Source of the DNA: Pseudoalteromonas tetraodonis
Lineage (GTDB): Bacteria; Pseudomonadota; Gammaproteobacteria; Enterobacterales; Alteromonadaceae
Reading direction: 5' to 3'
Assembly (NCBI RefSeq): GCF_002310835.1
Contig: NZ_CP011041.1
Location: forward strand, 450,001 to 482,000
Length of the DNA: 32,000 nt
Below, piece after piece: positions 4,591-24,706 of this stretch. A model generated the notes under the pieces. That model worked only from the letters and a program-made list of their open reading frames with translations. It was not told the DNA's origin and ran no database searches. The number at the start of each line of letters is the position of its first letter. The first letter of the stretch is position 1. The position numbers and the translations under genes are program-made.

Positions 4591-4625
4591 CGAACCCCGA
4601 ACCCCGAACCCCGAACCCCGAACCC
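4591..4625 (+). repeat. Heptamer array (GAACCCC)x5
   Basis: Five perfect tandem 7-nt units read directly. The array lies between the IS right end and trmJ. Confidence 0.95.
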
Positions 4626-4793
4626 CGCAATTAAGCTATTAGTTTCTCCGCAAGGTTGAGTTCCATTGTTGCTTTTAATAAACGGTATAAGTTAATTGAT
4701 GCGTCTATTTCTTCTTCTATTGAATATAGGATCTCAGCGCGTTTTCATGCTAGAATTTGCGCAATTTTTTTGTACTCGATAAGTAGCACTGTA

Positions 4794-5519
4794 ATGATCT
4801 TAGATGATATTCGCATCGTTTTAGTAAACACATCACACTCTGGTAACATTGGTTCAGCGGCGCGCGCCATGAAAACCATGGGATTATCAAAGTTATACCT
4901 TGTTGATCCAGCCTGTGAAATAGACAGTCATGCAAGTGCGCTTGCTGCAGGTGCGACTGATGTACTAGGTAATGCTGTTATTGTTGATAGTGTTGCAGAT
5001 GCGATTGCTGATTGTGCATTAACGATTGGTACTAGCGCCCGCTCGCGTACATTGTCGTGGCCTATGGTAGAGCCGAGAGAATGTGGTGAAAAGCTTGTTG
5101 GCGAAGCCGTAAACGGCCCTGTAGCGCTTGTGTTTGGCCGTGAAAACAGTGGCTTAACTAATGAAGAATTACAACTGTGTAATTACCATGTGTGTATTCC
5201 TGCTAACCCAGAATACAGCTCACTTAATTTAGCCATGGCTGTGCAAACCTTATGTTATGAAACGCGTATGGCGTTTTTAAATCAGCAACCTAAGGCTGTT
5301 CAAGAAGAAGACGACACCCAATATCCATCGTCTAAACAAACAGAACTGTTTTACGAACATCTTGAAGACACTTTGTTTAAAACAGGCTTCATCATTAAGC
5401 AGCACCCAGGCATGGTAATGACTAAGCTACGTCGCTTGTTTAATCGTGCTCGCCCTGAAGATGCTGAAATGAACATATTACGAGGTATTCTTACCTCAAT
5501 TAATAAGTCTATAAAATAG
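4794..5519 (+). CDS. trmJ: tRNA (cytidine/uridine-2'-O)-methyltransferase TrmJ
   Basis: The SpoU-type sequence [31 protein letters not shown]... closely mirrors the enterobacterial TrmJ N-terminus. The position just upstream of iscR is the conserved one. The track ORF starts at 4656, but its 46-aa extension is low-complexity and not TrmJ-like, so ATG 4794 is preferred. Confidence 0.85.
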
Positions 5520-5556
5520 CAATTAGTTATAAATAGCGCCCTTTATTGCTCTACTA

Positions 5557-5695
5557 ATACTTGACTAAATTACTCAGGTAATTACAATAGACTCAATACT
5601 TGACCAAAACAGTCGGGTATTACAAGTTTATCGGCTGGCATTCGAGGCTAGCCAATCAGGATAATACTTGACTAATCTACTCTGGTAATTAAAAT
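5557..5695 (+). promoter_or_regulatory. Three IscR type-1 boxes, each overlapping a sigma70-like promoter; the iscR promoter region
   Basis: The boxes are ATACTTGACTAAATTACTCAGGTAA (5557-5581), ATACTTGACCAAAACAGTCGGGTAT (5596-5620) and ATACTTGACTAATCTACTCTGGTAA (5664-5688). They fit the E. coli type-1 consensus ATASYYGACTRWWWYAGTCRRSTAT with about 1-4 mismatches. The proximal box contains TTGACT (5668-5673), then 16 nt, then TAAAAT (5690-5695), about 27 nt before the iscR ATG. Confidence 0.7.
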
Positions 5696-5721
5696 TTGCA
5701 CTCTTTTGTGCGGGGGGCGTT

Positions 5722-6213
5722 ATGAAGTTAACATCAAAAGGCAGATACGCCGTTACAGCCATGCTGGATGTTGCACTACATGCAAATATAGGCCCTGTAG
5801 CGCTTGCAGATATTTCGCAGCGCCAAGAAATTTCTTTGTCTTATCTTGAGCAATTATTTGCCCGTTTACGTAAAAATGGGCTAGTGAGTTCTGTTCGAGG
5901 TCCTGGTGGGGGCTATTTACTAGGACGTGAGGCTGACGTAATTTCAGTTGGCGATGTTATCAATGCGGTAGATGAATCTGTTGACGCTACACGGTGTCAG
6001 CGAAGCAATACTGGTTGTCAAAGTGGTATGCGTTGTTTAACCCATACATTGTGGTCAGACTTAAGCGCACGAATTGAAGAATTTTTAAATAATATTACCT
6101 TAGCTGAACTGGTTGAAAAGTCGGACGTTAAAGCGGTCGCTCTTCGCCAAGAAAACAGCGTTAATGATGCAATTAAGCAGTTGGAAAATATTCAAGTAAG
6201 CTGTCAACTTTAA
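5722..6213 (+). CDS. iscR: Fe-S cluster assembly transcriptional regulator IscR (Rrf2 family)
   Basis: [20 protein letters not shown]... is an Rrf2 wHTH N-terminus. Cys residues in ...[15 protein letters not shown]... could ligate a cluster. It is the first gene of the isc operon. Confidence 0.95.
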
Positions 6214-6237
6214 GGTTGACCTGCAGCGGAGAGAGAA

Positions 6238-7455
6238 ATGAAGTTACCGATTTATTTAGATTACGCAGCAACTACGCCTGTTGACGAACGAGTTGCCAAA
6301 GAAATGATGCAGTGCCTGACTATGGACGGTAATTTTGGTAATCCAGCATCGCGTTCACACCGTTTTGGTTGGCAAGCTGAAGAAGTCGTTGACCAAGCAC
6401 GTACTGACATTGCCGATTTAATTAATGCAGACCCTCGTGAAATTGTATTCACATCGGGGGCAACAGAATCAAATAACCTTGCTATTAAAGGTGCGGCTCA
6501 GTTTTACAAGAAAAAAGGTAAGCATGTTATTACCGCTAAAACTGAACACAAAGCGGTTATCGACACATGTCGTGAGCTTGAGCGTCAAGGGTTTGAAGTA
6601 ACTTATATGGACGTTGAAGAAAACGGCCTACTTGATCTGCAAAAATTAGCAGATACGATGCGTGACGACACCGTGCTTGTAAGTATTATGCATGTAAATA
6701 ACGAGCTAGGTGTAATCCAAGACATCAATACTATTGGTGAAATGTGTCGCGAACGTAAAATTATGTTCCACGTAGATGCAGCACAAAGCGCAGGTAAAGT
6801 TTTAATTGACGTGCAACAAACCAAAGTAGATTTTATGTCATTCTCGGCGCACAAAGTATACGGCCCTAAAGGCGTAGGTGCTTTGTATGTTCGTCGTAAA
6901 CCACGTGCTCGTTTAGAAGCACAAATGCACGGTGGCGGCCATGAACGTGGTATGCGTTCTGGTACATTAGCAACCCATCAGTTAGTAGGTATGGGCGCAG
7001 CATTTAGAATTGCAAAACAAGATTTTGAAAAAGATCACGCACACATCAGTGCGTTACGTAAACGCCTAATCGACGGCATTTTAACAGATATGGACGAAGT
7101 GTACTTTAACGGCACACAAGACCAATCAGTACCTGGTATTGTTAATATCAGCTTTAACTTTGTTGAAGGTGAGTCGTTACTAATGGCCGTTAAAGATATT
7201 GCGGTATCGTCAGGTTCAGCCTGTACATCTGCAAGTTTAGAGCCTTCTTACGTATTACGTGCATTAGGCCGCAACGACGAATTAGCGCACAGCTCAATTC
7301 GTTTTAGTATTGGCCGCTTTACCACCGAAGAAGAGATTGATTACACCGTTGAGCTAATGAAAAACTCGATTGGCCGTTTACGTGAAATGTCTCCTCTTTG
7401 GGAAATGCACCAAGAAGGTGTTGATTTAGATTCAGTTGAATGGGCGCACCACTAA
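6238..7455 (+). CDS. iscS: Cysteine desulfurase IscS
   Basis: 405 aa. It has the [15 protein letters not shown]-terminus, the [15 protein letters not shown]-lysine motif, the SSGSACTS active-site Cys loop and the C-terminal WAHH. All are hallmark IscS features. Confidence 0.97.
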
Positions 7456-7495
7456 TTAGTGGAGCCCATACCTAGCAGGTAGTGAGGATAGAATT

Positions 7496-7879
7496 ATGGC
7501 TTACAGTGATAAAGTAATCGACCACGTAGAAAACCCACGTAACGTAGGTGCTCTAGATAAAAACGATCCGTCAGTGGCAACGGGTATGGTAGGCGCACCA
7601 GCATGTGGTGACGTAATGAAACTGCAAATTAAAGTTTCAGCAGAAGGCGTGATTGAAGATGCAAAATTCAAAACGTACGGCTGTGGTAGTGCAATTGCTT
7701 CATCTTCACTGGTAACAGAGTGGGTTAAAGGCAAAACATTAGACGAAGCGTCTACTATCAAAAATACTGATATCAGCGCAGAGCTAGAATTACCACCAGT
7801 GAAAATTCACTGTTCAATTTTAGCCGAAGATGCAATTCAAGCAGCAATTGCAGATTACAAAAGCAAACATACAAACTAA
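7496..7879 (+). CDS. iscU: Fe-S cluster scaffold IscU
   Basis: 127 aa, with MAYSDKVIDHVENPRNVG, GAPACGDVMKL, YGCGSAIASSS and LPPVKIHCS motifs. Confidence 0.97.
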   Translation: MAYSDKVIDHVENPRNVGALDKNDPSVATGMVGAPACGDVMKLQIKVSAEGVIEDAKFKTYGCGSAIASSSLVTEWVKGKTLDEASTIKNTDISAELELPPVKIHCSILAEDAIQAAIADYKSKHTN

Positions 7880-7888
7880 GAGATATTC

Positions 7889-8212
7889 ATGGCAGTGACA
7901 TTGACAGATGCGGCAGCAAACCGCGTACAATCATTTTTAGCAAACCGTGGTAAAGGCATAGGCCTGCGAGTTGGCATTAAAACGACGGGCTGTTCAGGTC
8001 TTGCTTATGTATTAGAGTTTGTTGATGAGCTAAACGATGACGATGAAACATTTGCGGCCAAAGGCGTTACCTTAATTGTTGACGCTAAAAGCTTAGTTTA
8101 TATCGACGGCACTGAGCTCGACTACACTAAAGAAGGCTTAAATGAAGGGTTTAAATTTAACAACCCTAATCAAGCTGATGAGTGTGGTTGTGGCGAAAGC
8201 TTTACCGTTTAA
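7889..8212 (+). CDS. iscA: Fe-S cluster insertion protein IscA (A-type carrier)
   Basis: 107 aa, with GCSGLAY and C-terminal CGCGESF motifs. The operon position fits. Confidence 0.95.
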
Positions 8213-8298
8213 GCTCAAACTTGTTTTGGATACCTAAGCTACTTGGGTATAACTAAGCCCTGCCAATTAATGTAGGGCTTTGTCATTTGTGAGAAGTT

Positions 8299-8826
8299 AT
8301 GCGTTATTTTGAGTTATTTGCAATTCCCGTTGACTACAATATTGATTTAGCAACGATTAACAAGCACTACTTAGAACTTCAACGTGCTGTTCACCCTGAT
8401 CGCCATGCTAACGCTAGCAGTCGTGATAAATTAATGGCCGTACAAAGTACTGCCGAAATTAATGATGCACTGCAAACACTTAAGCATCCGGTTAAACGTG
8501 CAGAATATATGCTGAGCGAGCTAGGCGTAGATATTCGTGCTGAGCAGCAAACATTGCAAGATCCCATGTTTTTAATGCAGCAAATGGAGCTTCGCGAAGA
8601 ACTTGAAGAGTTAGCGAGCGCAAGCGATCCTGATTCTGCTATTGCCCATTTTGAAAAACAAATCAAACAGCTTGATCAGCAATACAGTGCGCAATTGGCA
8701 GAGCAGTTAGCAAGTAACGATGAGCAGCAATATCAACAAGCAGCAGACAGTATCCGTAAGCTAAAGTTTGTTTATAAGTTACGCGACGAACTTGAACGCA
8801 TTGAAGACAGTTTATTTGACGATTAA
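8299..8826 (+). CDS. hscB: Co-chaperone HscB
   Basis: 175 aa. It has a J-domain with an HPD motif (AVHPDRHA). It lies between iscA and hscA. Confidence 0.93.
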   Translation: MRYFELFAIPVDYNIDLATINKHYLELQRAVHPDRHANASSRDKLMAVQSTAEINDALQTLKHPVKRAEYMLSELGVDIRAEQQTLQDPMFLMQQMELREELEELASASDPDSAIAHFEKQIKQLDQQYSAQLAEQLASNDEQQYQQAADSIRKLKFVYKLRDELERIEDSLFDD

Positions 8827-8868
8827 TTCACTTGCTGCAAAGCGAGCAACACGAGTTTAAAGAGCATT

Positions 8869-10731: not shown

Positions 10732-10742
10732 GAGAGATTAGA

Positions 10743-11081: not shown

Positions 11082-11106
11082 TTTTTAATTAATGACTATC
11101 ATATTA

Positions 11107-11137
11107 AAAGCCGCTGTTTGATACAGCGGCTTTTTTG
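11107..11137 (+). terminator. Rho-independent terminator of the isc operon
   Basis: AGCCGCTG (11109-11116) pairs with CAGCGGCT (11123-11130) and is followed by TTTTTT. Confidence 0.8.
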
Positions 11138-11147
11138 TTTGTATTTG

Positions 11148-11491
11148 GTAGCAGCGGGTTTACCCCGCGTCTTTTTAAAGTTAAAGGCGAAAGGTTAAAG
11201 GCGAAAGGTTAAAGGGTTACGAGCTTCGGGTGACGGGCCTCGAACCTAGTACCTGCGCAAGCTTTTTTCTCTGTGTAGCGCGCAGCGCCTCGGTGCACTC
11301 TGTGGTAAAAAACATTTTGTAGCAGCGGGTTTACCCCGCGTCTTTTTAAAGGTTAAAGGCGAAAGGCAAAATGTTACGAGCGACGGGCGGCGGGTAAATT
11401 AAAATTAAAAAGTCTTGTAGCGTTAACCACAAGGCTTTTTTAATTTATCGAAGCCCGAAGCCCAAAACCCGAAGCCCAAAACCCAAAACCC
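11148..11491 (+). repeat. Composite intergenic repeat: 2 REP-like hairpins, 7/14-nt arrays, a CTCTGTGG box, a conserved hairpin and a heptamer array
   Basis: GTAGCAGCGGGTTTACCCCGCGTC occurs at 11148-11171 and 11319-11342, each followed by TTTTTAAAG and (GGTTAAA/GGCGAAA) units. TTCTCTGTGTAGCGCGCAGCGCCTCGGTGCACTCTGTGGT lies at 11267-11306. An 11-bp-stem hairpin lies at 11407-11441. (CGAAGCC/CAAAACC)x6 lies at 11449-11491 and ends 10 nt before the gabD RBS. Confidence 0.9.
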
Positions 11492-11507
11492 ATTTTGGAG
11501 GTATATT

Positions 11508-13408: not shown

Positions 13409-14950
13409 ATGAGTAGAAGAAATCAAGCAACGGTAGACCAGGAAGTTTCGTTTGGCATTGACGAAGAATTAGTTTCTACAACAGATTTACGAGGGGTTAT
13501 CACCTATGCAAATGATAGCTTTTGTAAAGTTTCAGGGTATACCATCAATGAGTTAAAAGGGAAAAATCATAATATGGTTCGTCACCCAGATATGCCACCT
13601 GCGGCATTTGGTGATATGTGGTCTAATTTAAAAAGCGATACCGCATGGCGAGGAGCTGTAAAAAATAGATGTAAAGATGGGCGTTATTACTGGGTTGATG
13701 CATTTGTTACCCCTATTTACGAAAACGGTAAAAAAGTAGGTTATCAATCAGTTCGCCAACAACTCCTTCCAGAATATAAACACCGCGCAGAAAAGCTTTA
13801 CCAACGTTTAAACAACGGTCAATCAATTACGCCTTTAAGTGAAAAATTAGCTGCATTTAAATTGCCTCTATTTATTGGGTGTGCCGCTTTAATTGCTTGG
13901 TTAACAAGTTACATGTTCTGGTTATGTTTGCTGTTTGTTCCTCTGCCTTTTGTTATTTTTTATGAAGAGTTAATTCGCTCGCAAAGCAAAATCAAAAAAA
14001 CCAAGGCAGGCCCAGATAGCGTATCTCGGCATATTTATTCTGGTAGCGATAGCCTCAGCTATAGTGATTTTCGGATTAAATTACTTGAGGGTAAAGTAAC
14101 GACCATTGTTGGGCGTATTATTGATGGCACTTTAAGCCTTAGCAAAGGAGCTGATTCGCTTAAAGTTTGTGCTGAAGCTGCGCAGGCTGGCGTTGAAAAA
14201 GAAGCATCTGAATTACATCAGGTATCGTCTGCGGTCGAAGAAATGGTGCATTCAATTGACGAGGTAGCAAAAAACACCTTAGTCACTAATCAACGAGTGC
14301 AACAAGCTCACCAAGATTGTGAGTCAGCAACGCAAGCCATGTCTGGGACAATGCGAGAGGTGTCGTTACTTGCAACTGAAGTTGATAACTCAGCAAGCTC
14401 TGCGAGTGAGTTAGCAACAGAGGCTGAAAAAATTGGTGGTATAATGCAAGAGATACAAGGGATTGCCGATCAAACAAATTTACTTGCACTCAATGCCGCT
14501 ATTGAGGCTGCGCGTGCTGGTGAACATGGTAGAGGCTTCTCGGTTGTTGCTGATGAGGTACGTGCACTCTCAAGCAGAACGCATACCGCCACAGAGCAAA
14601 TTCAAGTCTCAATATCTGAAATGCAATCTACGCTACTCAACTGGTCCAAAACAATGGAAGCGGGTAAACACGCTGCTGAAACATGTGTTAAAGAAACCCG
14701 TAATAGCCAAGATATCGTCTCAAAAGTCTATGCGGCAATTACAGATATTTCCGATTTAGCAACGCAAATATCAACCGCTGCGGAAGAGCAAAGTATGGTA
14801 TCGCAAGAAATTAGCCGCAATATTTCCAATATTAGTAGTGCGTCTTCAGAAAATTTAGCCCAAGCGCATTGTGTAGGGGCAGAGTCTGATGCGATTGAAA
14901 AGCACTCTAAAGCATTAGCGTCATTAGGTCTTTCTTTCAAAGTAGGTTAG
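13409..14950 (+). CDS. Methyl-accepting chemotaxis protein with an N-terminal cytoplasmic PAS domain (Aer-like topology)
   Basis: 513 aa. A PAS motif is present ([20 protein letters not shown]...MVRHPDMP...[12 protein letters not shown]). A hydrophobic hairpin lies around aa 150-190. The highly conserved MCP signalling tip is present ([37 protein letters not shown]). Confidence 0.92.
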
Positions 14951-14954
14951 TAAA

Positions 14955-17507
14955 GTGAGCAAGGATAGCAAGCAGTTAGATATAGGTGCAGCCTATGATG
15001 TATCGTATTCTCAATGTGCAAATTTAAGTGCACAATTGAGAGTACTGCAGCACGAAATTAAAGCCGATTACTTATTTATTGCCTCTGTAAATGAAGATAA
15101 ATTAGCAACTACGCAGTTGGTTTTATATAACGCAGAGGTCGTTGATAACTTTTCTTATTCGCTAGAAGGCTCGCCTTGTGAACAGCTGCCTTCAAAAAGT
15201 GCGTGTTTTATAACGGATGAATTACAACAACACTATCCTGAAAATAAGCTACTAAAAACTATAAATGCGCAAGCTTACATTGGCGTCTCTATAAGCAATG
15301 ATGAAGGCCAATTAAGCGGCGTACTGGTTGGTCTTTATTTAAATAGTGATCCAACAATCGAACGCTACCTACCAAGGCTAATTAGCTTTGCGAGTTATAC
15401 AGCAGTGTTCTTGCAAAAGTGTTTTTTAGAAGATAAATCAAGCTCACAGCAATCACTATTTAGTGCTGTTGAAGCTATGTCGAAGGTAGGCACGTGGGAA
15501 TACACAATTTCAACCGGCGAGCTAAATTATTCACCCGAGGTTTATAATATTTATGGCCTTGATAAGCACAAACCGCTCACGACCACACAAGCGATTGCGC
15601 ATTATGCTGGTGAAAAAGAGCAAGCGCGTATTCGTGATTTTTTTAATCGTTTGCAAACACATGGTCTTCCTTATTGTGAAGACTTTGAGTTTGTAGATGC
15701 TCATGGCAATAAAAAGTGGGTACGGACGAGTGGTCACCCTGTTTTTAATGATGATCATCAGGTTATTAAAGTGCATGGTGCTTTTGAAGATGTCACTTTA
15801 GAGTATGAATTAAAGGCCAAGGTTGATGATAAAAATAATCGCCTTGAAGCTATTTTAAATAACTTAAATGATGCAGTGATCACTATTAATCAGCAAGGCG
15901 TTATTGTTCACTGTAACTCAACCGCATTAACTATGTTTGGCTATAAGCAAAATGAAATGCTTGGCTTGTCGATTAACAACTTAATGCCTGAGCCTTATGC
16001 ATCTAAGCATCACTCGTATATGCGAAATTATGAGCAAACAGGTGAGGCTAAAATTATTGGTGTTGGTAGGCAACTACCTGCAAGAAAAAAAGACGGCACT
16101 ATTTTTCAAATAGAATTGTCACTTACCAAAGCCGTTAATGAGCAAAGCGTTGAATATATTGGTGTAGTTAGAGATATTAGTGAAAAACTCAAAGCGCAAG
16201 ATACCATTTATAATTTAGCTTATTCAGATCCCATAACAGGATTAAAAAATAAGCGGTGGTTTGAGCGCGAATGCAGAAGTTTACTTCAAAGTGCCAGCAT
16301 TAATAATGGCTATATATATGCTGCATTATTAGATATGGATAAGTTAGCGCAATTTAACTTTAAGTACGGTATTGAGGCGGGCAACGAAGCACTCATTTTA
16401 ACGGCTAAAAAACTATCAAATGCGGTACAGGGCGAGTACAAGCTATACAAAAGCGGAGTCGATTCTTTTTTAATTATAAGCGCCAATATAAGTAATGACT
16501 TATCCTACCTAGAGCAACAACAACCAAGTATAGACTCTAAAATATTAGCGCTAGATAACTTCTCACATAAGATCAGTGATCTTGATGTGGTACTAAGCGC
16601 CTCGTTGGGCAGTACAATTATTAATGCGAGTAGAGACTCCTATAGCTCTATGTTTGATAAGTTGGAATACGCACTAAAACAAGCCAAAAAGTTGTCTCCT
16701 TTTGGTTATTACTTTGCAGATTTAGATGCATTAAAACGTTACGAACGTACCAATAAAATTCGTTACTTACTAATAAATGTTGATAAAAGTGATGAATTAA
16801 CACTGGTACTACAGCCACAATTTATTAATGAAAATACCTTTAATTCAGCCGAAGCATTATTACGTTGGGATTCTGAGGAATTAGGCGTAATAAGCCCTGG
16901 GGAATTTATACCCCTAGCAGAAGAGAGTGAAGCCATTATTAAAATTGGCGATTGGGTGGTTGATCAAGTATGTAAGTTGCTGCATGAAGTCAGCCGAGCA
17001 GGAAAAAACACCTGTATTGCCGTTAACATTAGCGCTAAACAAATTGTAGCCCCCGATTTTAAGGAAAAATTGCTCGCCAGTGTTCATAAGTGGCAAGTGT
17101 CACCACGTAACTTAGTGATAGAGCTGACCGAAACGACTTTAGTGTCAGACATCGAACTAGTAAAAGAGACTATGCTTGAACTTAATAAAAAGGGCTTTAG
17201 GTTTTCAATTGATGACTTTGGAACGGGTTATTCAAGCCTGAGTTATTTGAAAGAGTTGCCAATTTCTGAGCTTAAAATAGATAAATACTTTGTCGATGGC
17301 ATTATGGATACTGACGATAATTCAAGTAAAACTATTGTGAATATGATCATCGACATGGCCAGTGCTTTAGGCGTAAATAGCGTTGCTGAAGGCGTTGAGG
17401 AACCTGCGCAATTTAATTATTTAAAGCAGCGCGGTTGCAACTTATTTCAAGGCTATTTATTTTCAAAGCCACTGCCTATTGCACAGTGGAAAGAACGCCT
17501 TAAATAA
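14955..17507 (+). CDS. Sensor c-di-GMP phosphodiesterase: GAF-like, PAS, PAS, degenerate GGDEF, EAL
   Basis: 850 aa, with a GTG start 4 nt after the MCP stop. The GGDEF signature is replaced by SGVDSF. The EAL domain looks intact (EALLRW, IELTE, DDFGTGYSSLSYL, KIDKYF, AEGVE, QGYLFSKP). Confidence 0.9.
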   Translation: MSKDSKQLDIGAAYDVSYSQCANLSAQLRVLQHEIKADYLFIASVNEDKLATTQLVLYNAEVVDNFSYSLEGSPCEQLPSKSACFITDELQQHYPENKLLKTINAQAYIGVSISNDEGQLSGVLVGLYLNSDPTIERYLPRLISFASYTAVFLQKCFLEDKSSSQQSLFSAVEAMSKVGTWEYTISTGELNYSPEVYNIYGLDKHKPLTTTQAIAHYAGEKEQARIRDFFNRLQTHGLPYCEDFEFVDAHGNKKWVRTSGHPVFNDDHQVIKVHGAFEDVTLEYELKAKVDDKNNRLEAILNNLNDAVITINQQGVIVHCNSTALTMFGYKQNEMLGLSINNLMPEPYASKHHSYMRNYEQTGEAKIIGVGRQLPARKKDGTIFQIELSLTKAVNEQSVEYIGVVRDISEKLKAQDTIYNLAYSDPITGLKNKRWFERECRSLLQSASINNGYIYAALLDMDKLAQFNFKYGIEAGNEALILTAKKLSNAVQGEYKLYKSGVDSFLIISANISNDLSYLEQQQPSIDSKILALDNFSHKISDLDVVLSASLGSTIINASRDSYSSMFDKLEYALKQAKKLSPFGYYFADLDALKRYERTNKIRYLLINVDKSDELTLVLQPQFINENTFNSAEALLRWDSEELGVISPGEFIPLAEESEAIIKIGDWVVDQVCKLLHEVSRAGKNTCIAVNISAKQIVAPDFKEKLLASVHKWQVSPRNLVIELTETTLVSDIELVKETMLELNKKGFRFSIDDFGTGYSSLSYLKELPISELKIDKYFVDGIMDTDDNSSKTIVNMIIDMASALGVNSVAEGVEEPAQFNYLKQRGCNLFQGYLFSKPLPIAQWKERLK

Positions 17508-17510
17508 TAT

Positions 17511-17695
17511 GTAGCAGCGACTTTATTTTGCGTTTATTAAGTTTATATGTTCAAAGCTTCAAATGCGGGCATCGGGCTTCGAGACGCGGGGTAAATCCAC
17601 TGCTACGTGTGTAGTTTTTAAATCTATGGTAGCAGCGACGTTATGTCGCGTCAGGTTTAAGATCTAATAAATGCGTAAGGTAAACTCATGCCTAC
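17511..17695. repeat. Cluster of four REP-like hairpins in alternating orientation (BIME-like)
   Basis: GTAGCAGCGACTTTATTTTGCGT (17511-17533) is in forward orientation. GACGCGGGGTAAATCCACTGCTAC (17583-17606) is inverted. GTAGCAGCGACGTTATGTCGCGTC (17629-17652) is forward. GCGTAAGGTAAACTCATGCCTAC (17673-17695) is inverted. Confidence 0.85.
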
Positions 17696-17796
17696 AGACA
17701 AGTTGGCGTAGTTTCTTTATTTCTGACTTGGCTTTGTATCGGGTAAATATAATTTAGAGATTAGCTTTAGATATTACTGAGGAGACTTAGAAATAG

Positions 17797-17873
17797 TGGG
17801 GCGATTGACGGGGCTCGAACCCGCGACAACCGGAATCACAATCCGGGGCTCTACCAACTGAGCTACAACCGCC
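17797..17873 (-). tRNA. tRNA-His (anticodon GTG) with encoded G-1 and CCA
   Basis: The minus strand reads G-GCGGTTG-TA-GCTC-AGTTGGTA-GAGC-C-CCGGA-TTGTGAT-TCCGG-TTGTC-GCGGG-TTCGAGC-CCCGT-CAATCGC-C-CCA. It folds into a full cloverleaf with a 7-bp acceptor stem. The extra 5' G pairing with C73 is the tRNA-His hallmark. Confidence 0.95.
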
Positions 17874-17903
17874 ACTACATACACCTTGTTTGGTGTGGCG
17901 CGC

Positions 17904-17932
17904 ATAATACATAATATCCCCATGCTTGTGAA
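17904..17932 (-). promoter_or_regulatory. Sigma70 promoter of tRNA-His
   Basis: On the minus strand: TTCACA (17932-17927), a 17-nt spacer, TATTAT (17909-17904), then the GC-rich discriminator GCGCGCC typical of stringently controlled stable-RNA promoters. It lies about 30 nt upstream of the mature 5' end. Confidence 0.6.
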
Positions 17933-18032
17933 GCAAAAAATCAAAAAAATTAAACTTATTTTAAGTATTCTATATTTAAGCTATTGGCAACGGGTAACGG
18001 GCAGCTCGAATCCCTAATTCCGCGCAAGATTT

Positions 18033-18722
18033 TCTTCTCTGTGTAGCGCGAAGCGCCTCGGTGTACTCTGTGGTTCAAAATGGTTTTTTAGGCGGGGGTT
18101 ATCACGCGCAGGTGGTTTTAGGCAATAAACTTATTCACAAAGAGGTTAAGAGACGCTGCTCTTTTAGAGCTAGTGAAAAAACAATTAATCACTCGGGCTC
18201 ATGGTTATTGTTTTCTCATTTACTCCTCATTCACCTCTCTTTGTGCAAAAAGATCTTAAAGAGATTTTATTCACCACAGAGGGTTAGTGCACACAGAGGA
18301 AATGATTAAAGACATGTTTTATTTGTTTTGTCTTCTCTGTGAAGCGCGTAGCGCCTCGGTGTACTCTGTGGTTCAAAATGGTTTGTAGGCGGGGGTTATC
18401 ACGCGCAGGTGGTTTTAGGCAATAAACTTATTCACAAAGAGGTTAAGAGACGCTGCGCTTTTAGAGCTAGTGAAAAACAATTAATCACTCGGGCTCATGG
18501 TTATTGTTTTCTCATTTACTCCTCATTCACTTCTCTTTGTGTAAAAAGATCTTAAAGAGATTTTATTCACCACAGAGGGTTAGAGCACACAGAGGAAATG
18601 ATTAAAGACATGTTTTATTTGTTTTGTCTTCTCTGTGAAGCGCGTAGCGCCTCGGTGTACTCTGTGGTGCAAAAAATTAAAACACTATTTACCACAGAGG
18701 TCACAGAGGAAGAGATTAAAGA
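18033..18722 (+). repeat. Tandem MITE-like elements: two 296-298 bp units plus one about 95 bp minimal unit, each bounded by CTCTGTGG-box inverted repeats
   Basis: The anchor CCTCGGTGTACTCTGTGG recurs at 18056, 18354 and 18650. Units 1 and 2 differ at about 9 positions, including 2 single-nt indels. Left arm: TTCTCTGTG..CGCCTCGGTGTACTCTGTGGT. Right arm: ACCACAGAGGGTTAG(T/A)GCACACAGAGGAA. The third unit keeps only the two arms (18627-18712). Confidence 0.9.
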
Positions 18723-18779
18723 CAAAGATTTTAGGTTTTAGGTAGAGATTAAGCCAAGCATGATGTTTGTATTGAACGT

Positions 18780-18837
18780 GAGCGGTGGTTATCCCGCGCA
18801 TTTCACTAAACCCTGCGCGAGGTAAACTCCCGCCTAC
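18780..18837. repeat. Pair of REP-like hairpins (convergent)
   Basis: GAGCGGTGGTTATCCCGCGCA (18780-18800) and CTGCGCGAGGTAAACTCCCGCCTAC (18813-18837) belong to the same family as the 11148, 17511 and 23519 copies. Confidence 0.8.
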
Positions 18838-18844
18838 GGGTATA

Positions 18845-18876
18845 AAAAACCTTGCTATATTAACCGTAAGGTTTTT
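18845..18876. terminator. Conserved terminator-like hairpin (homologous to 11407-11441)
   Basis: AAAAACCTTGC pairs with GTAAGGTTTTT (11 bp, one G-U). The 10-nt loop TATATTAACC is flanked by an A-run and a T-run, so it is bidirectional in form. Confidence 0.65.
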
Positions 18877-18881
18877 AAATT

Positions 18882-18923
18882 CCTCGAACCTCGAACCTCG
18901 AACCTCGAACCTCGAACCTCGAA
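18882..18923 (+). repeat. Heptamer array (CCTCGAA)x6
   Basis: Six perfect units read directly, about 90 nt upstream of the mscS start. Confidence 0.95.
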
Positions 18924-19015
18924 CCTTGTAAAACGCTGTTGCAAACACGTATTAAAGATTTACAATACAATAAACAACACCGCTAAACTGCTTAATAACA
19001 CTATCAGGAGTTAAT

Positions 19016-19834
19016 ATGGATTCAATACTCAATTGGCTGAATGAAAATTCAGGCTTAATCTTACACTACGGTATTCAGGCAGTTATAGCGCTTGTTATAT
19101 TTTTACTGGGTGGACGAATTGCTAAATTTTGTGCAAAGTTAACCGAAAAAGCATTCGACAAGAAAAAAGTAGATAAAGCGGTTTCATCGTTTGTCTCTAG
19201 TATTGTATATGCCATTGTATTTGCAGCCACTATTTTAATGGCGCTGTCACAAATTGGTATCGAAACTACGTCATTTATTGCTATTTTAGGTGCGGCAGGT
19301 TTAGCCGTTGGCTTAGCACTGCAAGGGTCGTTATCTAACTTTGCGTCAGGCGTATTAATTATTCTACTTCGCCCATTTAAATCAGGTGACTATGTTGAAG
19401 CGGGCGGTAAAGCCGGTACGATTAAAAAAATCGAAATATTCTCAACTGAAATGCGCACACCCGATAACAAAGTTATTGTAATGCCTAATTCAAAAATCAT
19501 GTCAGATGCGATCATTAATTACTCGCGCGAATCAACACGCCGCGTTGATCTTGTGATTGGTGTTGGCTACGACGCCGACTTACGAAAAGCAAAAGAAGTA
19601 CTTAAATCAGTGCTTGATAACGAATCGCGTATTTTAAAAGATCCTGCATACAATGTATCAGTTTCTGAACTTGCCGATTCAAGCGTTAACTTTATAGTGC
19701 GCCCGTGGGTTAACTCAGAGGATTACTGGCCAACATATTGGTCGTTAATGGAAAACATTAAAATAGCGTTAGACGACGCAGACATTACCATTCCATTCCC
19801 GCAAATGGATGTACATTTACACAAGCAAGACTAA
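19016..19834 (+). CDS. mscS: Small-conductance mechanosensitive channel (MscS family)
   Basis: 272 aa. It has three N-terminal TM helices. The pore helix and beta-domain signature is present (AAGLAVGLALQGSLSNFASGVLIILLRPFKSGDYVE...GTIKKIEIFST). The RBS is AGGAG. Confidence 0.9.
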   Translation: MDSILNWLNENSGLILHYGIQAVIALVIFLLGGRIAKFCAKLTEKAFDKKKVDKAVSSFVSSIVYAIVFAATILMALSQIGIETTSFIAILGAAGLAVGLALQGSLSNFASGVLIILLRPFKSGDYVEAGGKAGTIKKIEIFSTEMRTPDNKVIVMPNSKIMSDAIINYSRESTRRVDLVIGVGYDADLRKAKEVLKSVLDNESRILKDPAYNVSVSELADSSVNFIVRPWVNSEDYWPTYWSLMENIKIALDDADITIPFPQMDVHLHKQD

Positions 19835-19940
19835 TTTTTTAAAATACTTATTTATTAAGGCTGCGCTCAAATTCGATTTATTAATATGCGCGCTGCCTTT
19901 TTAATAGGTATTAATACATTTTTTACAGGGTTATTTTTTA

Positions 19941-20723
19941 ATGAAACTTAAGCTTTTATCAATTTTAGTAGCAGCCTCAGCTACAACCAATGCATTTGCA
20001 GCAGAAGAAGAACAAAAAACCTGGGAAGTTACCAGTGAAGTAGGCGCTATTATTACCAGCGGTAATACCGAAACAACCACCCTCAAAGGCGGTATTAAAG
20101 TATTACATAACTTAGAAAATTGGAACAACGAGTATAAGTTAGACGGCATCTACAAAGAAGACGAAGTAGAAAACGACGACGGTACTAAAGAAAAGCAGCG
20201 TACTAACGAAAAGTACTCTATTTCAGCGCAGGGTAATTACAAATTAAATGAGAAACACGCTCATTTATTTATTTATGGGTCGCACGTATCTGATTACTTT
20301 GGCGCATACCGAAGCGAGTCGGTTATTTCAGCGGGTTATGGTTTACGTTTATTAAACGAGTCAAACATGAAACTAAACGCTGAAATTGGTCCAGGTTATA
20401 AGTACTTTAAATACCCAGATGTAAGCGAAGAGGTTGATGAAAACGGCAACTCACTAGCGGGTGAATACGAAGGTGAAGTAATTGCGCTAGGTAAAGTAGA
20501 CTTTAGCTGGAAAATTTCAGACAACGCACGTTTTACTCAGTTAGTATCGGTAGAATATGGTGATACCAATACCAAAACGCGCTCAGAAACCGCACTTCTG
20601 ACTAAAATTAATGGCTCACTACAAATGAAAGTAGCCTACAATATTACTAATAACTCAGATGTTGCTGACGATAAAGAGGCAACTGATACAGAGACCTCAT
20701 TAACATTGGTGTATAGCTTTTAA
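19941..20723 (+). CDS. DUF481 (YdiY-like) outer-membrane beta-barrel protein
   Basis: 260 aa. It has the signal peptide MKLKLLSILVAASATTNAFA/AE, an alternating beta-strand pattern and a C-terminal ...LTLVYSF aromatic terminus typical of OM barrels. Confidence 0.75.
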   Translation: MKLKLLSILVAASATTNAFAAEEEQKTWEVTSEVGAIITSGNTETTTLKGGIKVLHNLENWNNEYKLDGIYKEDEVENDDGTKEKQRTNEKYSISAQGNYKLNEKHAHLFIYGSHVSDYFGAYRSESVISAGYGLRLLNESNMKLNAEIGPGYKYFKYPDVSEEVDENGNSLAGEYEGEVIALGKVDFSWKISDNARFTQLVSVEYGDTNTKTRSETALLTKINGSLQMKVAYNITNNSDVADDKEATDTETSLTLVYSF

Positions 20724-20756
20724 CATCAAGTAGTAAATTAATTGTAATAAAACTAT

Positions 20757-20781
20757 GAAAGGGGCTAAAGTCCCTTTTTTA
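20757..20781 (+). terminator. Rho-independent terminator
   Basis: GAAAGGG pairs with CCCTTTT around the loop GCTAAAGT and is followed by a T-run. Confidence 0.7.
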
Positions 20782-20845
20782 TTTGCTCATAAATAATGTA
20801 TGATACCCACCAATTTTGGTTGTAGACCTAGGGAAATACCTACTC

Positions 20846-23512
20846 GTGAACGTTATTAAACATTTATTAAGTGCTTTTGTACTTATATGTAGCTTTAGCA
20901 CATTAGCATTTGCGCCAACAGCCGCTCAACTTGAGCAGTTTCAAAAGTTGCCTAAGTCTCAACAGCAGGCACTTGCAAAGCAATATGGCGTAGACATTTC
21001 AAGCCTTGAAGGTGCAGGCAATGCCAGTGGCAAAAATAACGAACAAGATAAACCCACAGTAGGTGAGCGTAATACCGCCGACGAACAAGCTTTTACAGAT
21101 GAAGAACGCTTTAAGCCCGAAGATAACACGGTAAAACCATTCGGTTATGACTTATTTGCCGGCGAACCCACCACATTTATGCCCAACGAAAATGCTGCAG
21201 TACCCGATACGTATTTAGTGGGGCGTGGCGATCAGCTATTAATCAACTTTTACGGTAAAGAAAGCGCAAGCTACGAAGTCATCGTTGATAGGGAAGGACG
21301 TATTAACATTCCCGACTTAAGTCCTGTTCAGGTAGCTGGTTTAACCTTTGCTGAAGTTAAAGAGTTAATAAAAGTAAAAGTTGAACAAGAGATTATAGGT
21401 GTTAAAGCGTTCGTATCGCTTGGTAAACTTCGCAGCATTCGTATTTTAGTATTGGGTGAAGCATACAAACCAGGTAGCTATAGTGTGTCGTCATTGACTA
21501 CAGTGTCGCATGCATTATTTGTAAGTGGTGGCGTGTCGGATATTGCCTCACTGCGTAATATTCAAGTAAAGCGCGGTGGTAAGGTTGTTACTAACTTTGA
21601 TTTATACGACTTACTTATTCGCGGTGATAGCAGCAACGATATTATTTTAAAACCGGGTGACGTGGTATTTATACCGTCGGTTGGCGAGCAAGTAACCGTT
21701 GATGGTTTAGTAAAACGCCCTGCTATTTTTGAGCTTAAAAAAGGCGAAACGGCAGAACAATTATTAAAAATGGCGGGCGGCATCAAGCCAAATGCTTACG
21801 CTAAAAGCGTGATAGTTGAACGTTTTAATAACCAACATAAAGAAGTGCTTTCGGTAGATTTTAGCAAAGAGCAAGTTAACTACATTCCACAAGATGGCGA
21901 TCGTATTCGTTTTAGCGCGATTGGTGAGCAATACCAAACTTCAATTAGTTTAATTGGTGCTGTAGTACGCCCTGGTAATTACCAGTGGTACAAGGGTAAG
22001 CGCATTTCAGACATATTAGGCTCAGTACGTGGTGACTTACTACCGCAAGCCGATTTAGATTATGCATTAGTAGTGCGCGAAACCAACGTAAATGGTGATA
22101 TTGAAATTCATCAGTTCGATTTAGCAAAAGCTATTACAAAAGATACTGAGAACAACTTACAACTTAACCCTAACGATAAAATTATTGTATTCAGTCGTTT
22201 TGAAGAAAAAGCATTAGAAGATATAGCGCTTGCAAATTTAGCGTTAACTAAAGAGCAGCAAGATCAACAACGCAAAGCAGAGCTTTGGCATGAATACCAA
22301 CAAAAAGAGTTCGAAAAGTATGTTGGTGTAGCGACTAAAAAGTCAGAGTTTGAAGAGGTAAACCCAAATTTAAGCATGGCGGAAATGCTTGAGAAAAAGC
22401 TTAAAGAACAAGAAGAAGATGCAAAAAGCTATGCCTTGTTCAGCCGCCATAATTTACTTAAACCGGTAATTGCTAAGTTAGAGCAGCAGGCCGGTGTAAT
22501 GCAGGCGATGCAAATAGTGGAAATTAGCGGCAGTGTAATGTACCCAGGCATTTACCCGTTAATGGAAGGCGGTGAAGTAAAAGACCTAATTACTGCTGCG
22601 GGGGGCTTATTAGAGTCGGCTTATACACAACAAGCTGAAGTAACAAGAATTGCCAATAACGATGTATCAAACATTGAGCATATTAAGTTTGATTTAAAAA
22701 GTGCTATGCAAGGTAAAGCGGCATCTAATATTTCATTACAAAGTAAAGACAGCGTAAATATATTTGCTATACCAAACTGGCAAGAAAACCTAAAAGTAGA
22801 GCTAAGGGGGGAGCTTAAATTTCCGGGCACCTATACTATTCGCCGCGGTGAAACCTTAAGTAACTTACTTGAGCGCGCCGGTGGCTTTTCTGAGTTTGCT
22901 GCAACCAATGCCGCTGTATTTACTCGCCAATCAATTAAAAAGCAAGAGCAACAACAGCTAGCGCGTTTATCTACCGAGCTTCGCCGTGATATAGCATCAA
23001 AAAGCTTTCAAAGTTCAGTTAGTAGCAACACACTTACTTACGATGAAATGAATAAACTTCTCGCAGATTTAGCAAATGTAGATGCCGTAGGCCGTTTAGT
23101 TATAGATTTACCGCTTATTGTTAATAATGAGCAAAACCTAGTACTGCAAGATGGCGATGTACTTTATGTGCCTAGTGAACGCGACTCAATCAGTGTAATA
23201 GGTGAGGTTAATTACTCTACCTCGCATCTATATAAAGCAGGCATAAGCGTAGACGAATACATAGACCTAAGCGGTGGCTTAAAAGAGCGCGCTGCTGATG
23301 ACCGTATTTATATAATTAAAGCAAATGGCTCAGTAAAAATACCAAATACCGGCAACTGGTTTGCAGTTAATAACTCAAACCAACTTGAACCTGGCGATAC
23401 CATTGTTGTCCCACTAGATGCAGGCCATATGGATAAGCTAACGCTTTGGAGCACCGCAACACAGATTCTATATCAACTAGGTGTAGCAGTAGCAGCCATA
23501 AGCGGTATTTAA
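20846..23512 (+). CDS. Large polysaccharide export protein (Wza/OtnA-like; Poly_export plus multiple SLBB domains)
   Basis: The track ORF runs 20816..23512 with a TTG start. GTG at 20846 gives MNVIKHLLSAFVLICSFSTLAFA/PT, a clean signal peptide. A Poly_export motif is present (YLVGRGDQLLINFYGKE...GRINIPDLSPVQVAGLTFAEVKELI). GDxxxVP SLBB-type repeats recur along the protein. Confidence 0.85.
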   Translation: MNVIKHLLSAFVLICSFSTLAFAPTAAQLEQFQKLPKSQQQALAKQYGVDISSLEGAGNASGKNNEQDKPTVGERNTADEQAFTDEERFKPEDNTVKPFGYDLFAGEPTTFMPNENAAVPDTYLVGRGDQLLINFYGKESASYEVIVDREGRINIPDLSPVQVAGLTFAEVKELIKVKVEQEIIGVKAFVSLGKLRSIRILVLGEAYKPGSYSVSSLTTVSHALFVSGGVSDIASLRNIQVKRGGKVVTNFDLYDLLIRGDSSNDIILKPGDVVFIPSVGEQVTVDGLVKRPAIFELKKGETAEQLLKMAGGIKPNAYAKSVIVERFNNQHKEVLSVDFSKEQVNYIPQDGDRIRFSAIGEQYQTSISLIGAVVRPGNYQWYKGKRISDILGSVRGDLLPQADLDYALVVRETNVNGDIEIHQFDLAKAITKDTENNLQLNPNDKIIVFSRFEEKALEDIALANLALTKEQQDQQRKAELWHEYQQKEFEKYVGVATKKSEFEEVNPNLSMAEMLEKKLKEQEEDAKSYALFSRHNLLKPVIAKLEQQAGVMQAMQIVEISGSVMYPGIYPLMEGGEVKDLITAAGGLLESAYTQQAEVTRIANNDVSNIEHIKFDLKSAMQGKAASNISLQSKDSVNIFAIPNWQENLKVELRGELKFPGTYTIRRGETLSNLLERAGGFSEFAATNAAVFTRQSIKKQEQQQLARLSTELRRDIASKSFQSSVSSNTLTYDEMNKLLADLANVDAVGRLVIDLPLIVNNEQNLVLQDGDVLYVPSERDSISVIGEVNYSTSHLYKAGISVDEYIDLSGGLKERAADDRIYIIKANGSVKIPNTGNWFAVNNSNQLEPGDTIVVPLDAGHMDKLTLWSTATQILYQLGVAVAAISGI

Positions 23513-23518
23513 TATAAT

Positions 23519-23544
23519 GTAGCTGCGGGTTTATCCCGCAGCTG
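23519..23544 (+). repeat. REP-like hairpin, possibly the terminator of the export gene
   Basis: GTAGCTGCGGGTTTATCCCGCAGCTG has a 9-bp perfect stem, AGCTGCGGG pairing with CCCGCAGCT. It lies 7 nt after the stop and has no T-run. Confidence 0.7.
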
Positions 23545-23616
23545 TTCTAAGGTTTTAGGCACAAGGTACTAGGTGCGAGGAAAGCCTAGAACCTAGAACT
23601 TAAAAAAGGAATTACT

Positions 23617-24006
23617 ATGAAGTTTGAACAGTTGGATGTTTGGAAAAGAGCTTCAAGGCTGGCTTGTGATATTTATAAAGCAACAGCCAAATGTAAAGAC
23701 TATGGTTTTAAGGATCAAGTTACGCGTTCTGCTATTTCAATTCCTTCTAACATAGCGGAGGGCTTAGAAAGAGACTCGCAGGCCGATCAAGCTAGGTTTT
23801 TATATTATGGCAAAGGCTCTGCCGGTGAGCTGGTAACGCAGATATATATAGGTATTGAAATAGGTTTTATAGAGCGAGAACTGGGTTTGAAATTGATTAA
23901 TGAATCGAAAGAAGTTGCTAGTATGCTTGCAGCATTAATTAACATTAGGAAAAGTCATATTAAAGAGCCTGAGCCGAATTATAATTTTGACGAACCTAGA
24001 ACCTAG
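23617..24006 (+). CDS. Four-helix-bundle protein (23S rRNA intervening-sequence protein / Avd-like family)
   Basis: 129 aa. MKFEQLDVWKRASRLACDIYKAT...SIPSNIAEG..R.S..D..RFLYYGKGSAGEL.TQ is the characteristic pattern of this family. An AAGGA RBS is present. The last 14 nt, including the TAG stop, are AACCTAG repeat units. Confidence 0.8.
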   Translation: MKFEQLDVWKRASRLACDIYKATAKCKDYGFKDQVTRSAISIPSNIAEGLERDSQADQARFLYYGKGSAGELVTQIYIGIEIGFIERELGLKLINESKEVASMLAALINIRKSHIKEPEPNYNFDEPRT

Positions 24007-24587
24007 AACCTAGAACCTAGAACCTAGAACCTAGAACCTAGAACCTAGAACCTAGAACCTAGAACCTAGAACCTAGAACCTAGAACCTAGAACCTAGAAC
24101 CTAGAACCTAGAACCTAGAACCTAGAACCTAGAACCTAGAACCTAGAACCTAGAACCTAGAACCTAGAACCTAGAACCTAGAACCTAGAACCTAGAACCT
24201 AGAACCTAGAACCTAGAACCTAGAACCTAGAACCTAGAACCTAGAACCTAGAACCTAGAACCTAGAACCTAGAACCTAGAACCTAGAACCTAGAACCTAG
24301 AACCTAGAACCTAGAACCTAGAACCTAGAACCTAGAACCTAGAACCTAGAACCTAGAACCTAGAACCTAGAACCTAGAACCTAGAACCTAGAACCTAGAA
24401 CCTAGAACCTAGAACCTAGAACCTAGAACCTAGAACCTAGAACCTAGAACCTAGAACCTAGAACCTAGAACCTAGAACCTAGAACCTAGAACCTAGAACC
24501 TAGAACCTAGAACCTAGAACCTAGAACCTAGAACCTAGAACCTAGAACCTAGAACCTAGAACCTAGAACCTAAAACCTAGAACCTAA
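23993..24587 (+). repeat. Heptamer array (AACCTAG)x85, 595 bp
   Basis: There are 82 consecutive perfect units (23993-24566), then AACCTAA, AACCTAG, AACCTAA. Phase continuity was checked line by line. A two-unit copy of the same motif lies at 23585-23599, upstream of the four-helix-bundle gene. Confidence 0.97.
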
Positions 24588-24626
24588 AACAATAACTTGA
24601 CCTAATGTTCTCGTTATTCAATTTTT

Positions 24627-24689
24627 GATAGCTGATAGCTGATAGCTGATAGCTGATAGCTGATAGCTGATAGCTGATAGCTGATAGCT
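24627..24689 (+). repeat. Heptamer array (GATAGCT)x9
   Basis: Nine perfect units read directly. The array ends 17 nt before the wzz ATG. Confidence 0.95.
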
Positions 24690-24706
24690 GAACTTATGAG
24701 ATTTAA

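Follow-up and report, generated by a model that had tools for sequence, protein, structure and literature searches.

Heptanucleotide arrays can be found in several intergenic regions of the 32,000-nt stretch of the Pseudoalteromonas tetraodonis chromosome analysed here (NZ_CP011041.1, positions 450,001 to 482,000; hereafter the window), which protein homologues and syntenic genomes likewise assign to Pseudoalteromonas. We put at about 0.55 the probability that these arrays are slippage-driven microsatellites and, as heptad arms of a single family, border small intergenic cassettes. The arrays are specific for a period of 7 nt and turn over at orthologous sites; the largest of them, of 85.6 units in the one assembly from which this copy number comes, is part of a cassette with a gene of the PF05635 family, and comparable arms surround PF05635 genes in very different bacteria. 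The window arrays belong to the known class of intergenic heptanucleotide repeats, i.e., long simple sequence repeats (SSRs) or short tandemly repeated repetitive (STRR) sequences, all the hallmarks of which are present: at least three highly identical, head-to-tail 7-nt units, an excess of period 7, non-coding location and a length that differs between strains by multiples of 7 nt. Five arrays have units matching at 100% or 99%, and mixed arrays are found in addition. As relayed in two later papers, heptanucleotides are the most abundant class of long SSRs in many genomes, and slippage has been proposed as their origin (Mrazek, 2007, via PMC4679880 and PMC4692102).

An earlier note on this DNA, made from the letters alone, had associated the 85-unit array with wzz, overlooking the four-helix-bundle (4HB) gene at 23617-24006 whose 3' arm the array is. 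The encoded protein has profile matches to TIGR02436 (2.6e-30) and NF008912 (6.6e-56), PF05635 is found on all homologues, and the closest solved structure is that of XCC0516 (PDB 2GSC, 4.9e-15). The array starts at 23992 and the gene ends at 24006, so that the last five codons of the latter (DEPRT) fall within the array; the coding overlap is limited to the first 15 nt and the remainder of the array is non-coding. The 5' arm of the cassette and the 3' array are predicted to form a duplex of -35.8 kcal/mol (z -5.3, also -6.7), and the local fold at the 5' arm (23550-23599) has a z score of -6.7. A 97% identical protein can be found at a different locus, between wzc and ugd, with upstream heptads of the same kind and with (GAACCTA)x5.5 downstream (L507; such L-numbers are the labels of the comparison loci). 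The same cassette ends in GAACCTA x4.5, x5.7 and x16.7 in other relatives (L509, L510 and L511, respectively), and the arm duplexes of L507, L509 and L511 have z scores of -9.4, -5.3 and -6.4. Since the same gene and arms recur at a new locus in L507, the array belongs to a cassette that keeps its arms across loci, and the window array is an expanded allele of the 3' arm of this cassette.

Regarding the period, arrays were detected with Tandem Repeats Finder and by direct reading of the sequence, and all 7-nt arrays listed in the earlier note, including GGTTAAA/GGCGAAA and GATAGCT, were recovered; the end of the gabD array, placed there 10 nt before the ribosome-binding site (RBS), actually lies 5 nt before GGAGG. 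Perfect arrays of at least three copies number four at period 7 in the window, one each at periods 4 and 6, and none at periods 5 and 8-15. When ten syntenic Pseudoalteromonas loci are added, 28 period-7 arrays stand against 0 at periods 8-15. In 120 loci of other phyla, each picked for one GAACC-type array, the unselected extra arrays number 53 at period 7, with unrelated motifs, vs. 6, 10, 10, and 1 at periods 5, 6, 8, and 9. After masking of perfect arrays, the residual period-7 signal in the window is modest (0.285 vs. 0.26-0.28 overall), with 13 local tracts at period 7 vs. 1-11 for other periods. The chain CGAAGCC-CGAACCC-CGAACCT-AGAACCT, which the note had drawn as a series of single substitutions, is correct, and its three links are not due to chance: the probability that a random heptamer differs from a given one by no more than one substitution, all rotations on the same strand being allowed, is ~0.009. 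The embedded 4-bp palindromes to which it had also pointed are not significant, ~36% of random heptamer arrays containing one. GAACC itself was considered as a privileged motif and set aside: in viral contigs, (GAACCYN)4 has 108 matches vs. 72 and 24 for two scrambled cores and 40 at period 8, a preference that is modest only, and such contigs are a poor test bed in which period 6 is swelled by coding Glu-Pro repeats.

The arrays were compared at orthologous intergenic sites in ten syntenic Pseudoalteromonas chromosomes retrieved by an identical Fdx protein, where they range from 0 to 24 copies. At the trmJ site, about 1.9, 5.4, 16.9, 18.9, 22.9, and 24.4 copies of CCGAACC can be found among relatives, and four strains have CTGACCG x6-21 instead, the 3' flank being unchanged there and the 5' flank a different one. 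The gabD array is present in all ten relatives with a variable mix and number of units. At the mscS site, CCTCGAA x6.4-7 is found in four strains and two units in L125, and the array is absent in L131 and L132; the same spacer harbors (GGCAACG)x8.6-10.4 in L126, L127, and L133, of which the window has only a decayed trace (17986-18020). The TGATAGC array at the wzz site has 9.4 units in the window vs. 17.4 in L126. The arrays therefore persist in place, while being unstable in length and replaceable in motif. The turnover in copy number and motif expected in the earlier note is thus observed (trmJ, ~2 to 24 copies; CCGAACC vs. CTGACCG), as is its picture of one related family of strict period 7 that is homogenised locally, orthologous sites differing in copy number and sometimes in motif. 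What lies between the arrays also varies: L126 harbors a non-coding module in place of the gene between the same outer heptads as those of the 4HB cassette, and a different, decaying 4HB gene occupies the cassette site in L127.

A second type of cassette, without an open reading frame (ORF), has the mscS array as its 3' arm; the minimum-free-energy fold pairs its arms (z -3.3). Its non-coding module can be found in three independent copies (the window; L125, 3750; L126, 19298) with three different pairs of arm motifs, each complementary: TTTTAGG/CCTCGAA, GTCAG/CTGACCG, and AGGTTTT/CCTAAAA. The mscS hairpin together with its array is 93% identical to that of an unrelated locus, L027, and the hairpin preceding the gabD array (11409-11443) has a relative in front of the mscS array (18844-18876) and of that of L027. 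As to the arrays of trmJ and gabD, they would be solo arms of the same motif family.

The generality of heptad arms was addressed with a gene-first sample of 80 metagenomic loci, the sole criterion being that they encode a relative of the window 4HB protein; they form 71 clusters at 80% identity and span a GC content of 26-68%. In this sample, 34 period-7 arrays lie no more than 150 nt from the 4HB gene, vs. 10 in other places, and other periods have 0-2 arrays. The best-window match at lag 7 is 0.57 upstream and 0.61 downstream of the gene, vs. 0.34-0.42 at lags 5, 6, 8, 9, and 10, and among 66 non-redundant genes, lag 7 ranks first in 76% and 79% of the flanks (p 6e-26 and 2e-28, binomial test). 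A match of at least 0.6 at lag 7 is reached by 41-51% of 4HB flanks vs. 15% of other intergenic regions in the same loci. The two flanks are also paired: the median z score of the upstream-downstream duplex is -2.4, and 60% of 75 cassettes fall below -2. In loci with two periodic arms, the arm cores are reverse-complementary within a locus and different between loci, e.g., CAAGG/CCTTG, GCAAGT/ACTTGC, GCTGAGG/CCTCAGC, and TTTTAGG/CCTAAAA, own pairs exceeding cross pairs (Mann-Whitney p 7e-8). They are polar as well, with G exceeding C in the upstream arm at 86% of loci and C exceeding G in the downstream arm at 84%; the same G-first polarity is seen in 13 of 14 ORF-less inverted pairs of other phyla. 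The claim that a fixed period of 7 reflects more than generic slippage is supported by these paired, co-varying arms around PF05635 cassettes. Moreover, distant heptad tracts share the core of the 4HB arms of their own contig (p 1e-9), which generalises the substitution series described above and points to a trans-acting, core-specific factor or to ongoing copying between sites. A possible factor of this kind is the pentameric 4HB protein, a relative of Avd from diversity-generating retroelements.

Beyond the metagenomic loci, all 17 plasmids of PLSDB with a homologue of the window 4HB protein (E<1e-8) are cyanobacterial. Heptad arms border the 4HB gene in 10 of the 10 cyanobacterial plasmid cases inspected, e.g., (GGGAACA)x4 ... 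(TGTTCCC)x7, and their duplexes have z scores of -4.4 to -9.0. In Xanthomonas, repeat #15 of Rehm et al. (PMC4692102), a GGGAATC x4 array, overlaps the start of XCC0516. The only match to a 4HB gene in the cross-phylum sample, L113, lies exactly between inverted arrays. A literature search for a link between PF05635 and heptamers returned the Coxiella case described below and no paper stating a general rule.

Several side observations concern the sites occupied by 4HB genes. In L527, L532, L538, L539, L546, and L549 (and L531), the 4HB cassette sits between a conserved gene end (...RKRPQYSKR*) and tRNA-Gln(CTG); six or seven loci in this position suggest a recurrent insertion site. On a Pseudanabaena plasmid (L593, NZ_CP112875.1, 45977-46918), the 4HB gene is found between cas6 and cas4, and its arms are direct, with (AAAGCTA)x14 on the upstream side and (AAAGCCA)x10 on the downstream side. 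This location agrees with PMC3936711, where 23S_rRNA_IVP genes had been reported from within cas operons. The phylum of all 17 PLSDB plasmids, the cyanobacteria, is also that of the first description of heptamer STRR sequences.

Similar repeats have been described in various bacteria. Long SSR/STRR sequences, including those of Calothrix PCC 7601, resemble the window arrays in their intergenic tandem 7-nt units, period-7 excess, lineage-specific motifs, and polymorphic length; unlike here, they have not been described for Pseudoalteromonas or linked to PF05635, and slippage is their sole proposed cause. In Xanthomonas, GGGAATC forms about 186 intergenic arrays of 2-26 units, 70 of the 186 being in convergent inverted pairs (Rehm et al., 2015, PMC4692102), and 83% of the arrays keep their position from species to species but not their length and sequence (PMC4692102). 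The Xanthomonas and Nostoc GGGGAYT repeats have been read as G-quadruplex elements, the 4HB link not being noted, whereas most window motifs cannot form quadruplexes. The TAACTGA repeats of Beggiatoaceae (MacGregor, 2015, PMC4679880) resemble those of the window in that short arrays, in which related heptamers are mixed in, immediately precede start codons and undergo 7-nt indels; heptads of the type CTGATAA/CTGACAA border the 4HB genes of L520 and L522. The TAACTGA repeats differ in having one motif across Beggiatoaceae, cyanobacteria, and Bacteroidetes and a strong forward orientation relative to start codons, and a role as translational regulator has been proposed for them (PMC4679880).

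The closest precedent for the cassette itself is the intervening sequence (IVS) of the 23S rRNA of Coxiella burnetii, whose terminal inverted repeats form a stem with an S23p ORF in its loop (Warrier et al., 2016, PMC4990558). Directly upstream of this ORF lie GACAGAT heptamers, two or three depending on the strain, and RNase III cuts at the first repeat; these heptamers were reported as a local curiosity (PMC4990558). The window cassette has in common with the 23S IVS a PF05635/TIGR02436 ORF and complementary termini predicted to form a stem, but it lies between a polysaccharide export gene and wzz and not in 23S helix 25 or 45. The Coxiella IVS, in contrast, is inserted in helix 45, and its stem is a 28-bp near-perfect duplex and not made of long heptad arrays.

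The cassettes may thus be pictured as follows. Arrays would lengthen and shorten in 7-nt steps through replication slippage, and a cassette would consist of a G-rich heptad arm on the 5' side and a partly complementary, C-rich heptad arm on the 3' side. Two cargoes would be carried in the window, namely the PF05635 gene, of the same family as the ORF of the 23S IVS, and the non-coding module at 18747-18877. Once transcribed, the arms may pair as a stem robust to shifts in register, akin by analogy to the RNase III-cut stem of the 23S IVS, which could release or insulate the cargo. The polarity with the G-rich arm first might keep Rho-loading, C-rich RNA unexposed, and effects on the expression of trmJ, gabD, mscS, and wzz would be by-products of array length. 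It can tentatively be proposed, as a possibility that we hold to be rather less probable than its opposite, that STRR sequences, GGGAATC, TAACTGA, and the window arrays are the footprint of one widespread IVS-like system, with a PF05635 gene between complementary arms as its autonomous form and ORF-less derivatives and solo arms accounting for most arrays.

Several observations weigh against the reading of the arrays as cassette arms. For two of the four main arrays (trmJ and gabD), the window contains no partner arm of significance (z -0.85 and -1.6): the trmJ array has a fold z score of +0.68 and a duplex z score of -0.85, and the duplex of the gabD array with the upstream G-rich tract, at z -1.6 to -1.7, is not significant. 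The mscS arm pair is weak as a duplex (z -2.1), and arm pairing is not kept in the centroid folds of the ORF-less cassettes. A minority of 4HB loci (L512, L558, L585, L586, and L593) have direct instead of inverted arms. With regard to sampling, the metagenomic loci represent a single portion of PF05635, with 43-75% identity to the protein of the window, and the plasmids come from cyanobacteria only. Starting from the arrays, hidden Markov model (HMM) searches, including iterated ones, detected a 4HB gene beside them at 1 of 120 cross-phylum loci, and HMM searches of viral loci detected none, whether among all 362 or among the 204 with period 7; a scan of viral contigs for 4HB relatives gave three loci. 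The link therefore runs from gene to arms and not from array to gene.

Since most arrays have no 4HB neighbour, a substantial rival is that of a pure mutational by-product, in which the arrays are neutral slippage microsatellites with an intrinsic preference for 7 nt and 4HB genes merely lie in the same permissive DNA. We regard this as the less likely account, though a serious one. It is a published hypothesis (Mrazek, 2007, as relayed in PMC4679880 and PMC4692102), and it would accommodate the hypervariable copy number, the loss of whole arrays at orthologous sites, the lack of a common position relative to promoters or RBSs, the unbiased orientation across phyla, and arrays that are far more numerous than 4HB genes. 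However, it leaves unexplained the reverse-complementary arm cores that change together between loci, the G-first polarity, the ~3-fold enrichment relative to the rest of the intergenic DNA on the same contigs, and the arms that move with the gene to a new locus. Orientation is a point on which the earlier note had claimed more: a position of all arrays 5' of plus-strand genes is true of the window, yet provides no independent evidence, because the + strand carries nearly all genes of the 4.6-31 kb interval, and across the 120 cross-phylum loci, where gene calls are crude, 26 arrays have the same orientation as the gene and 17 the opposite one, which shows no bias.

Contingency or tuning loci, where a change in copy number switches or tunes the downstream gene, are an improbable explanation for which a precedent exists: upstream of hmw1A/hmw2A of Haemophilus influenzae, as in the wzz case, a 7-nt array of variable copy number precedes a gene for a surface structure, and an RNase III-targeted 5' untranslated region element is involved (PMC8262952, PMC12721329). 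That system differs from the window in belonging to a host-adapted pathogen, in its proven graded expression switch, and in having neither cassette gene nor paired arms. A consensus promoter and terminator scan places promoter-like sites a short distance downstream of the trmJ and mscS arrays, and the gabD and wzz arrays against the RBS; the largest arrays precede a surface-polysaccharide cluster, and copy number differs between strains, as this account would have it. Yet housekeeping genes (trmJ, SSADH, the latter for succinate semialdehyde dehydrogenase) are among the downstream genes, the same array types can be found at the 3' ends of convergent genes (L013, L027), and the 85-unit array belongs to the upstream 4HB gene and not to wzz. 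Because array positions differ between loci, with no shared placement relative to promoter or RBS, the promoter-spacing rheostat offered in the earlier note does not hold as a single role.

The protein lattice also offered there is, to us, similarly unlikely: by analogy, heptads could be iterated binding sites, with a core of 4-5 bp and 2-3 variable bases, perhaps for a pentameric 4HB protein. The omega repressor of inc18 plasmids binds contiguous direct or inverted 7-bp heptads cooperatively; it is a ribbon-helix-helix protein encoded nearby, with sites at plasmid promoters and partition sites and a single fixed motif. Units with a conserved core and variable positions, the occurrence of both direct and inverted arrangements, the genome-own core common to 4HB arms and distant tracts, and the joint inheritance of the protein and the GAACCTA arm in a subfamily at >=75% identity would agree with a lattice, while sequence-specific binding of nucleic acids is not known for PF05635 and shared ancestry alone can explain the link between protein and core. 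Arrays made or spread by a REP-associated tyrosine transposase (RAYT; REP, repetitive extragenic palindrome) are rejected, even though REP hairpins lie directly 5' of G-rich heptads (11148-11170, 11319-11341, and 23519-23543) and RAYT genes are found in this region of L124 and L131. There, RAYT is bordered by its own REP palindromes, in clusters with a period of ~96 bp, and not by heptads; the window has arrays without RAYT; and heptad arms occur in many phyla with no Y1 transposase seen alongside. A regulatory role as G-quadruplex or i-motif elements, such as that put forward for GGGAATC of Xanthomonas and GGGGAYT of Nostoc, is just as improbable: the complement of (CGAACCC)n, (GGGGTTC)n, fits the G3+ N1-7 pattern (PMC4692102), but CCTCGAA, GAACCTA, TGATAGC, CGAAGCC, CTGACCG, and GGCAACG have G runs of one or two only. 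As to formal classes, the heptamer arrays are neither palindromic nor flanking RAYT, in contrast to REP/REPIN-RAYT elements, imperfect palindromes of 20-40 nt that contain GTAG and flank or accompany a Y1 transposase; quadruplex-forming heptamers have at least four runs of at least three G separated by short loops, which only the complement of the CGAACCC array has; and the contiguous 7-nt units without spacers differ from the 25-40-nt repeats with unique spacers of a CRISPR array.

Table. Heptad arrays, cassette parts, and adjoining hairpins of the window.
Feature	Position	Strand	Remarks
(CCGAACC)x5.4	4590-4627	+	upstream of trmJ promoter region; solo array, without partner arm in the window
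REP hairpin (GTAGCAGCGGGTTTACCCCGCG)	11148-11170	+	G-rich heptads directly after; this REP type also flanks RAYT in L124 and L131
G-rich heptad tract	11170-11255	+	GGTTAAA/GGCGAAA (11175-11215), then degenerate units
Second REP and degenerate G-rich heptads	11319-11411	+	AAAGGTT AAAGGCG AAAGGCA ... GCGACGG GCGGCGG; degenerate GGTTAAA/GGCGAAA copy at ~11337-11396
Terminator-like hairpin with T run	11409-11443	+	5-10 nt upstream of gabD array
Mixed CGAAGCC/CAAAACC array	11449-11492	+	ends 5 nt before GGAGG of SSADH/gabD gene
Degenerate heptads GGCAACG GGTAACG GGCAGCT CGAATCC CTAATTC	17986-18020	+	decayed copy of (GGCAACG)x8.6-10.4 of L126, L127, and L133
(TTTTAGG)x2	18729-18743	+	5' arm of ORF-less cassette
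Non-coding cargo module (GATTAAGCCAAG...)	18747-18877	+	REP-like hairpin and terminator-like hairpin at 18844-18876
(CCTCGAA)x6.4	18882-18926	+	ends 13 nt upstream of promoter-like mscS site (18939-18966)
REP hairpin	23519-23543	+	left edge of export-gene/wzz spacer
5' arm of 4HB cassette	23550-23599	+	AGGTTTT AGGCACA AGGTACT AGGTGCG AGGAAAG, then CCTAGAA x2
4HB gene, 129 aa	23617-24006	+	PF05635/TIGR02436, "S23p / 23S rRNA IVS protein"
(GAACCTA)x85.6	23992-24590	+	99% matches
(TGATAGC)x9.4	24626-24691	+	abuts wzz start; self-complementary through AGCU cores; fold z -3.8

The window harbors, in this order, an IS3 fragment, trmJ, the isc operon through fdx, the SSADH (gabD-like) gene, and a chemoreceptor gene, followed by a PAS-GGDEF-EAL gene, tRNA-His on the minus strand, mscS, the polysaccharide export gene, the 129-aa 4HB gene, wzz, and the polysaccharide cluster. 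The spacers are dense with REP hairpins (GTAGCAGCGGGTTTACCCCGCG), a 296-bp tandem element, and terminator-like hairpins. In an Rfam scan of the window, tRNA-His was the sole known RNA family, and no rRNA was found. This tRNA-His(GTG) gene (17797-17872, -) is the sole minus-strand gene in a long + stretch; it lies between the GGDEF-EAL gene and mscS amid REP and miniature inverted-repeat transposable element (MITE) clutter, and is also present in L124 and L131. The 296-bp unit is repeated 2.2 times in tandem at 18033-18674 with 97% identity and is made of MITE-like pieces with the ends CTCTGTG...CACAGAG, related pieces being found at 11265 and in several relatives. In the spacer upstream of mscS, a RAYT gene (PF01797, Y1 transposase) flanked by REP pairs is located at 14144-14590 (-) in L124 and at 17286-17732 (-) in L131, where about seven tandem REP doublets with a period of ~96 bp follow at 17733-18400. 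The PAS-GGDEF-EAL gene (14955-17507) is absent in L124, L126, L127, and L133 and present in other relatives, so its presence varies between strains. Next to the trmJ array, an IS3-family transposase fragment can be found at 4192-4464 (-); in L129, L130, and L132 (~2540-3730), a full-length 383-aa IS3 transposase is found in the position of this fragment, and upstream synteny is replaced there. In Shewanella (L134-L143), a 4HB gene is found in the same export-gene/wzz spacer, its flanks being CTAGAA-rich 27-nt hairpin repeats and not clean heptads; these loci (~100-1040) also have a 9-nt array (TGCTTTAAA x3-6) upstream of the polysaccharide export gene.

The arrays have a practical side as well. 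Three short-read (Logan) assemblies of apparently the same strain (L001-L003), with 100% identity along 7.3 kb, each begin within the TGATAGC array (window 24662); such arrays therefore break short-read assemblies. As the arrays adjoin polysaccharide, cas, and tRNA loci, changes in their length could alter expression. More broadly, the present reading joins three observations that had been neither linked nor given a function, namely the excess of 7-nt tandem repeats in certain bacterial genomes, the S23p/PF05635 genes scattered among operons and rRNA IVSs, and the convergent heptamer pairs of Xanthomonas. Were all these repeats indeed the footprint of a single IVS-like system, an orphan protein family would gain a function and a repeat class left unexplained for 35 years would gain an origin.

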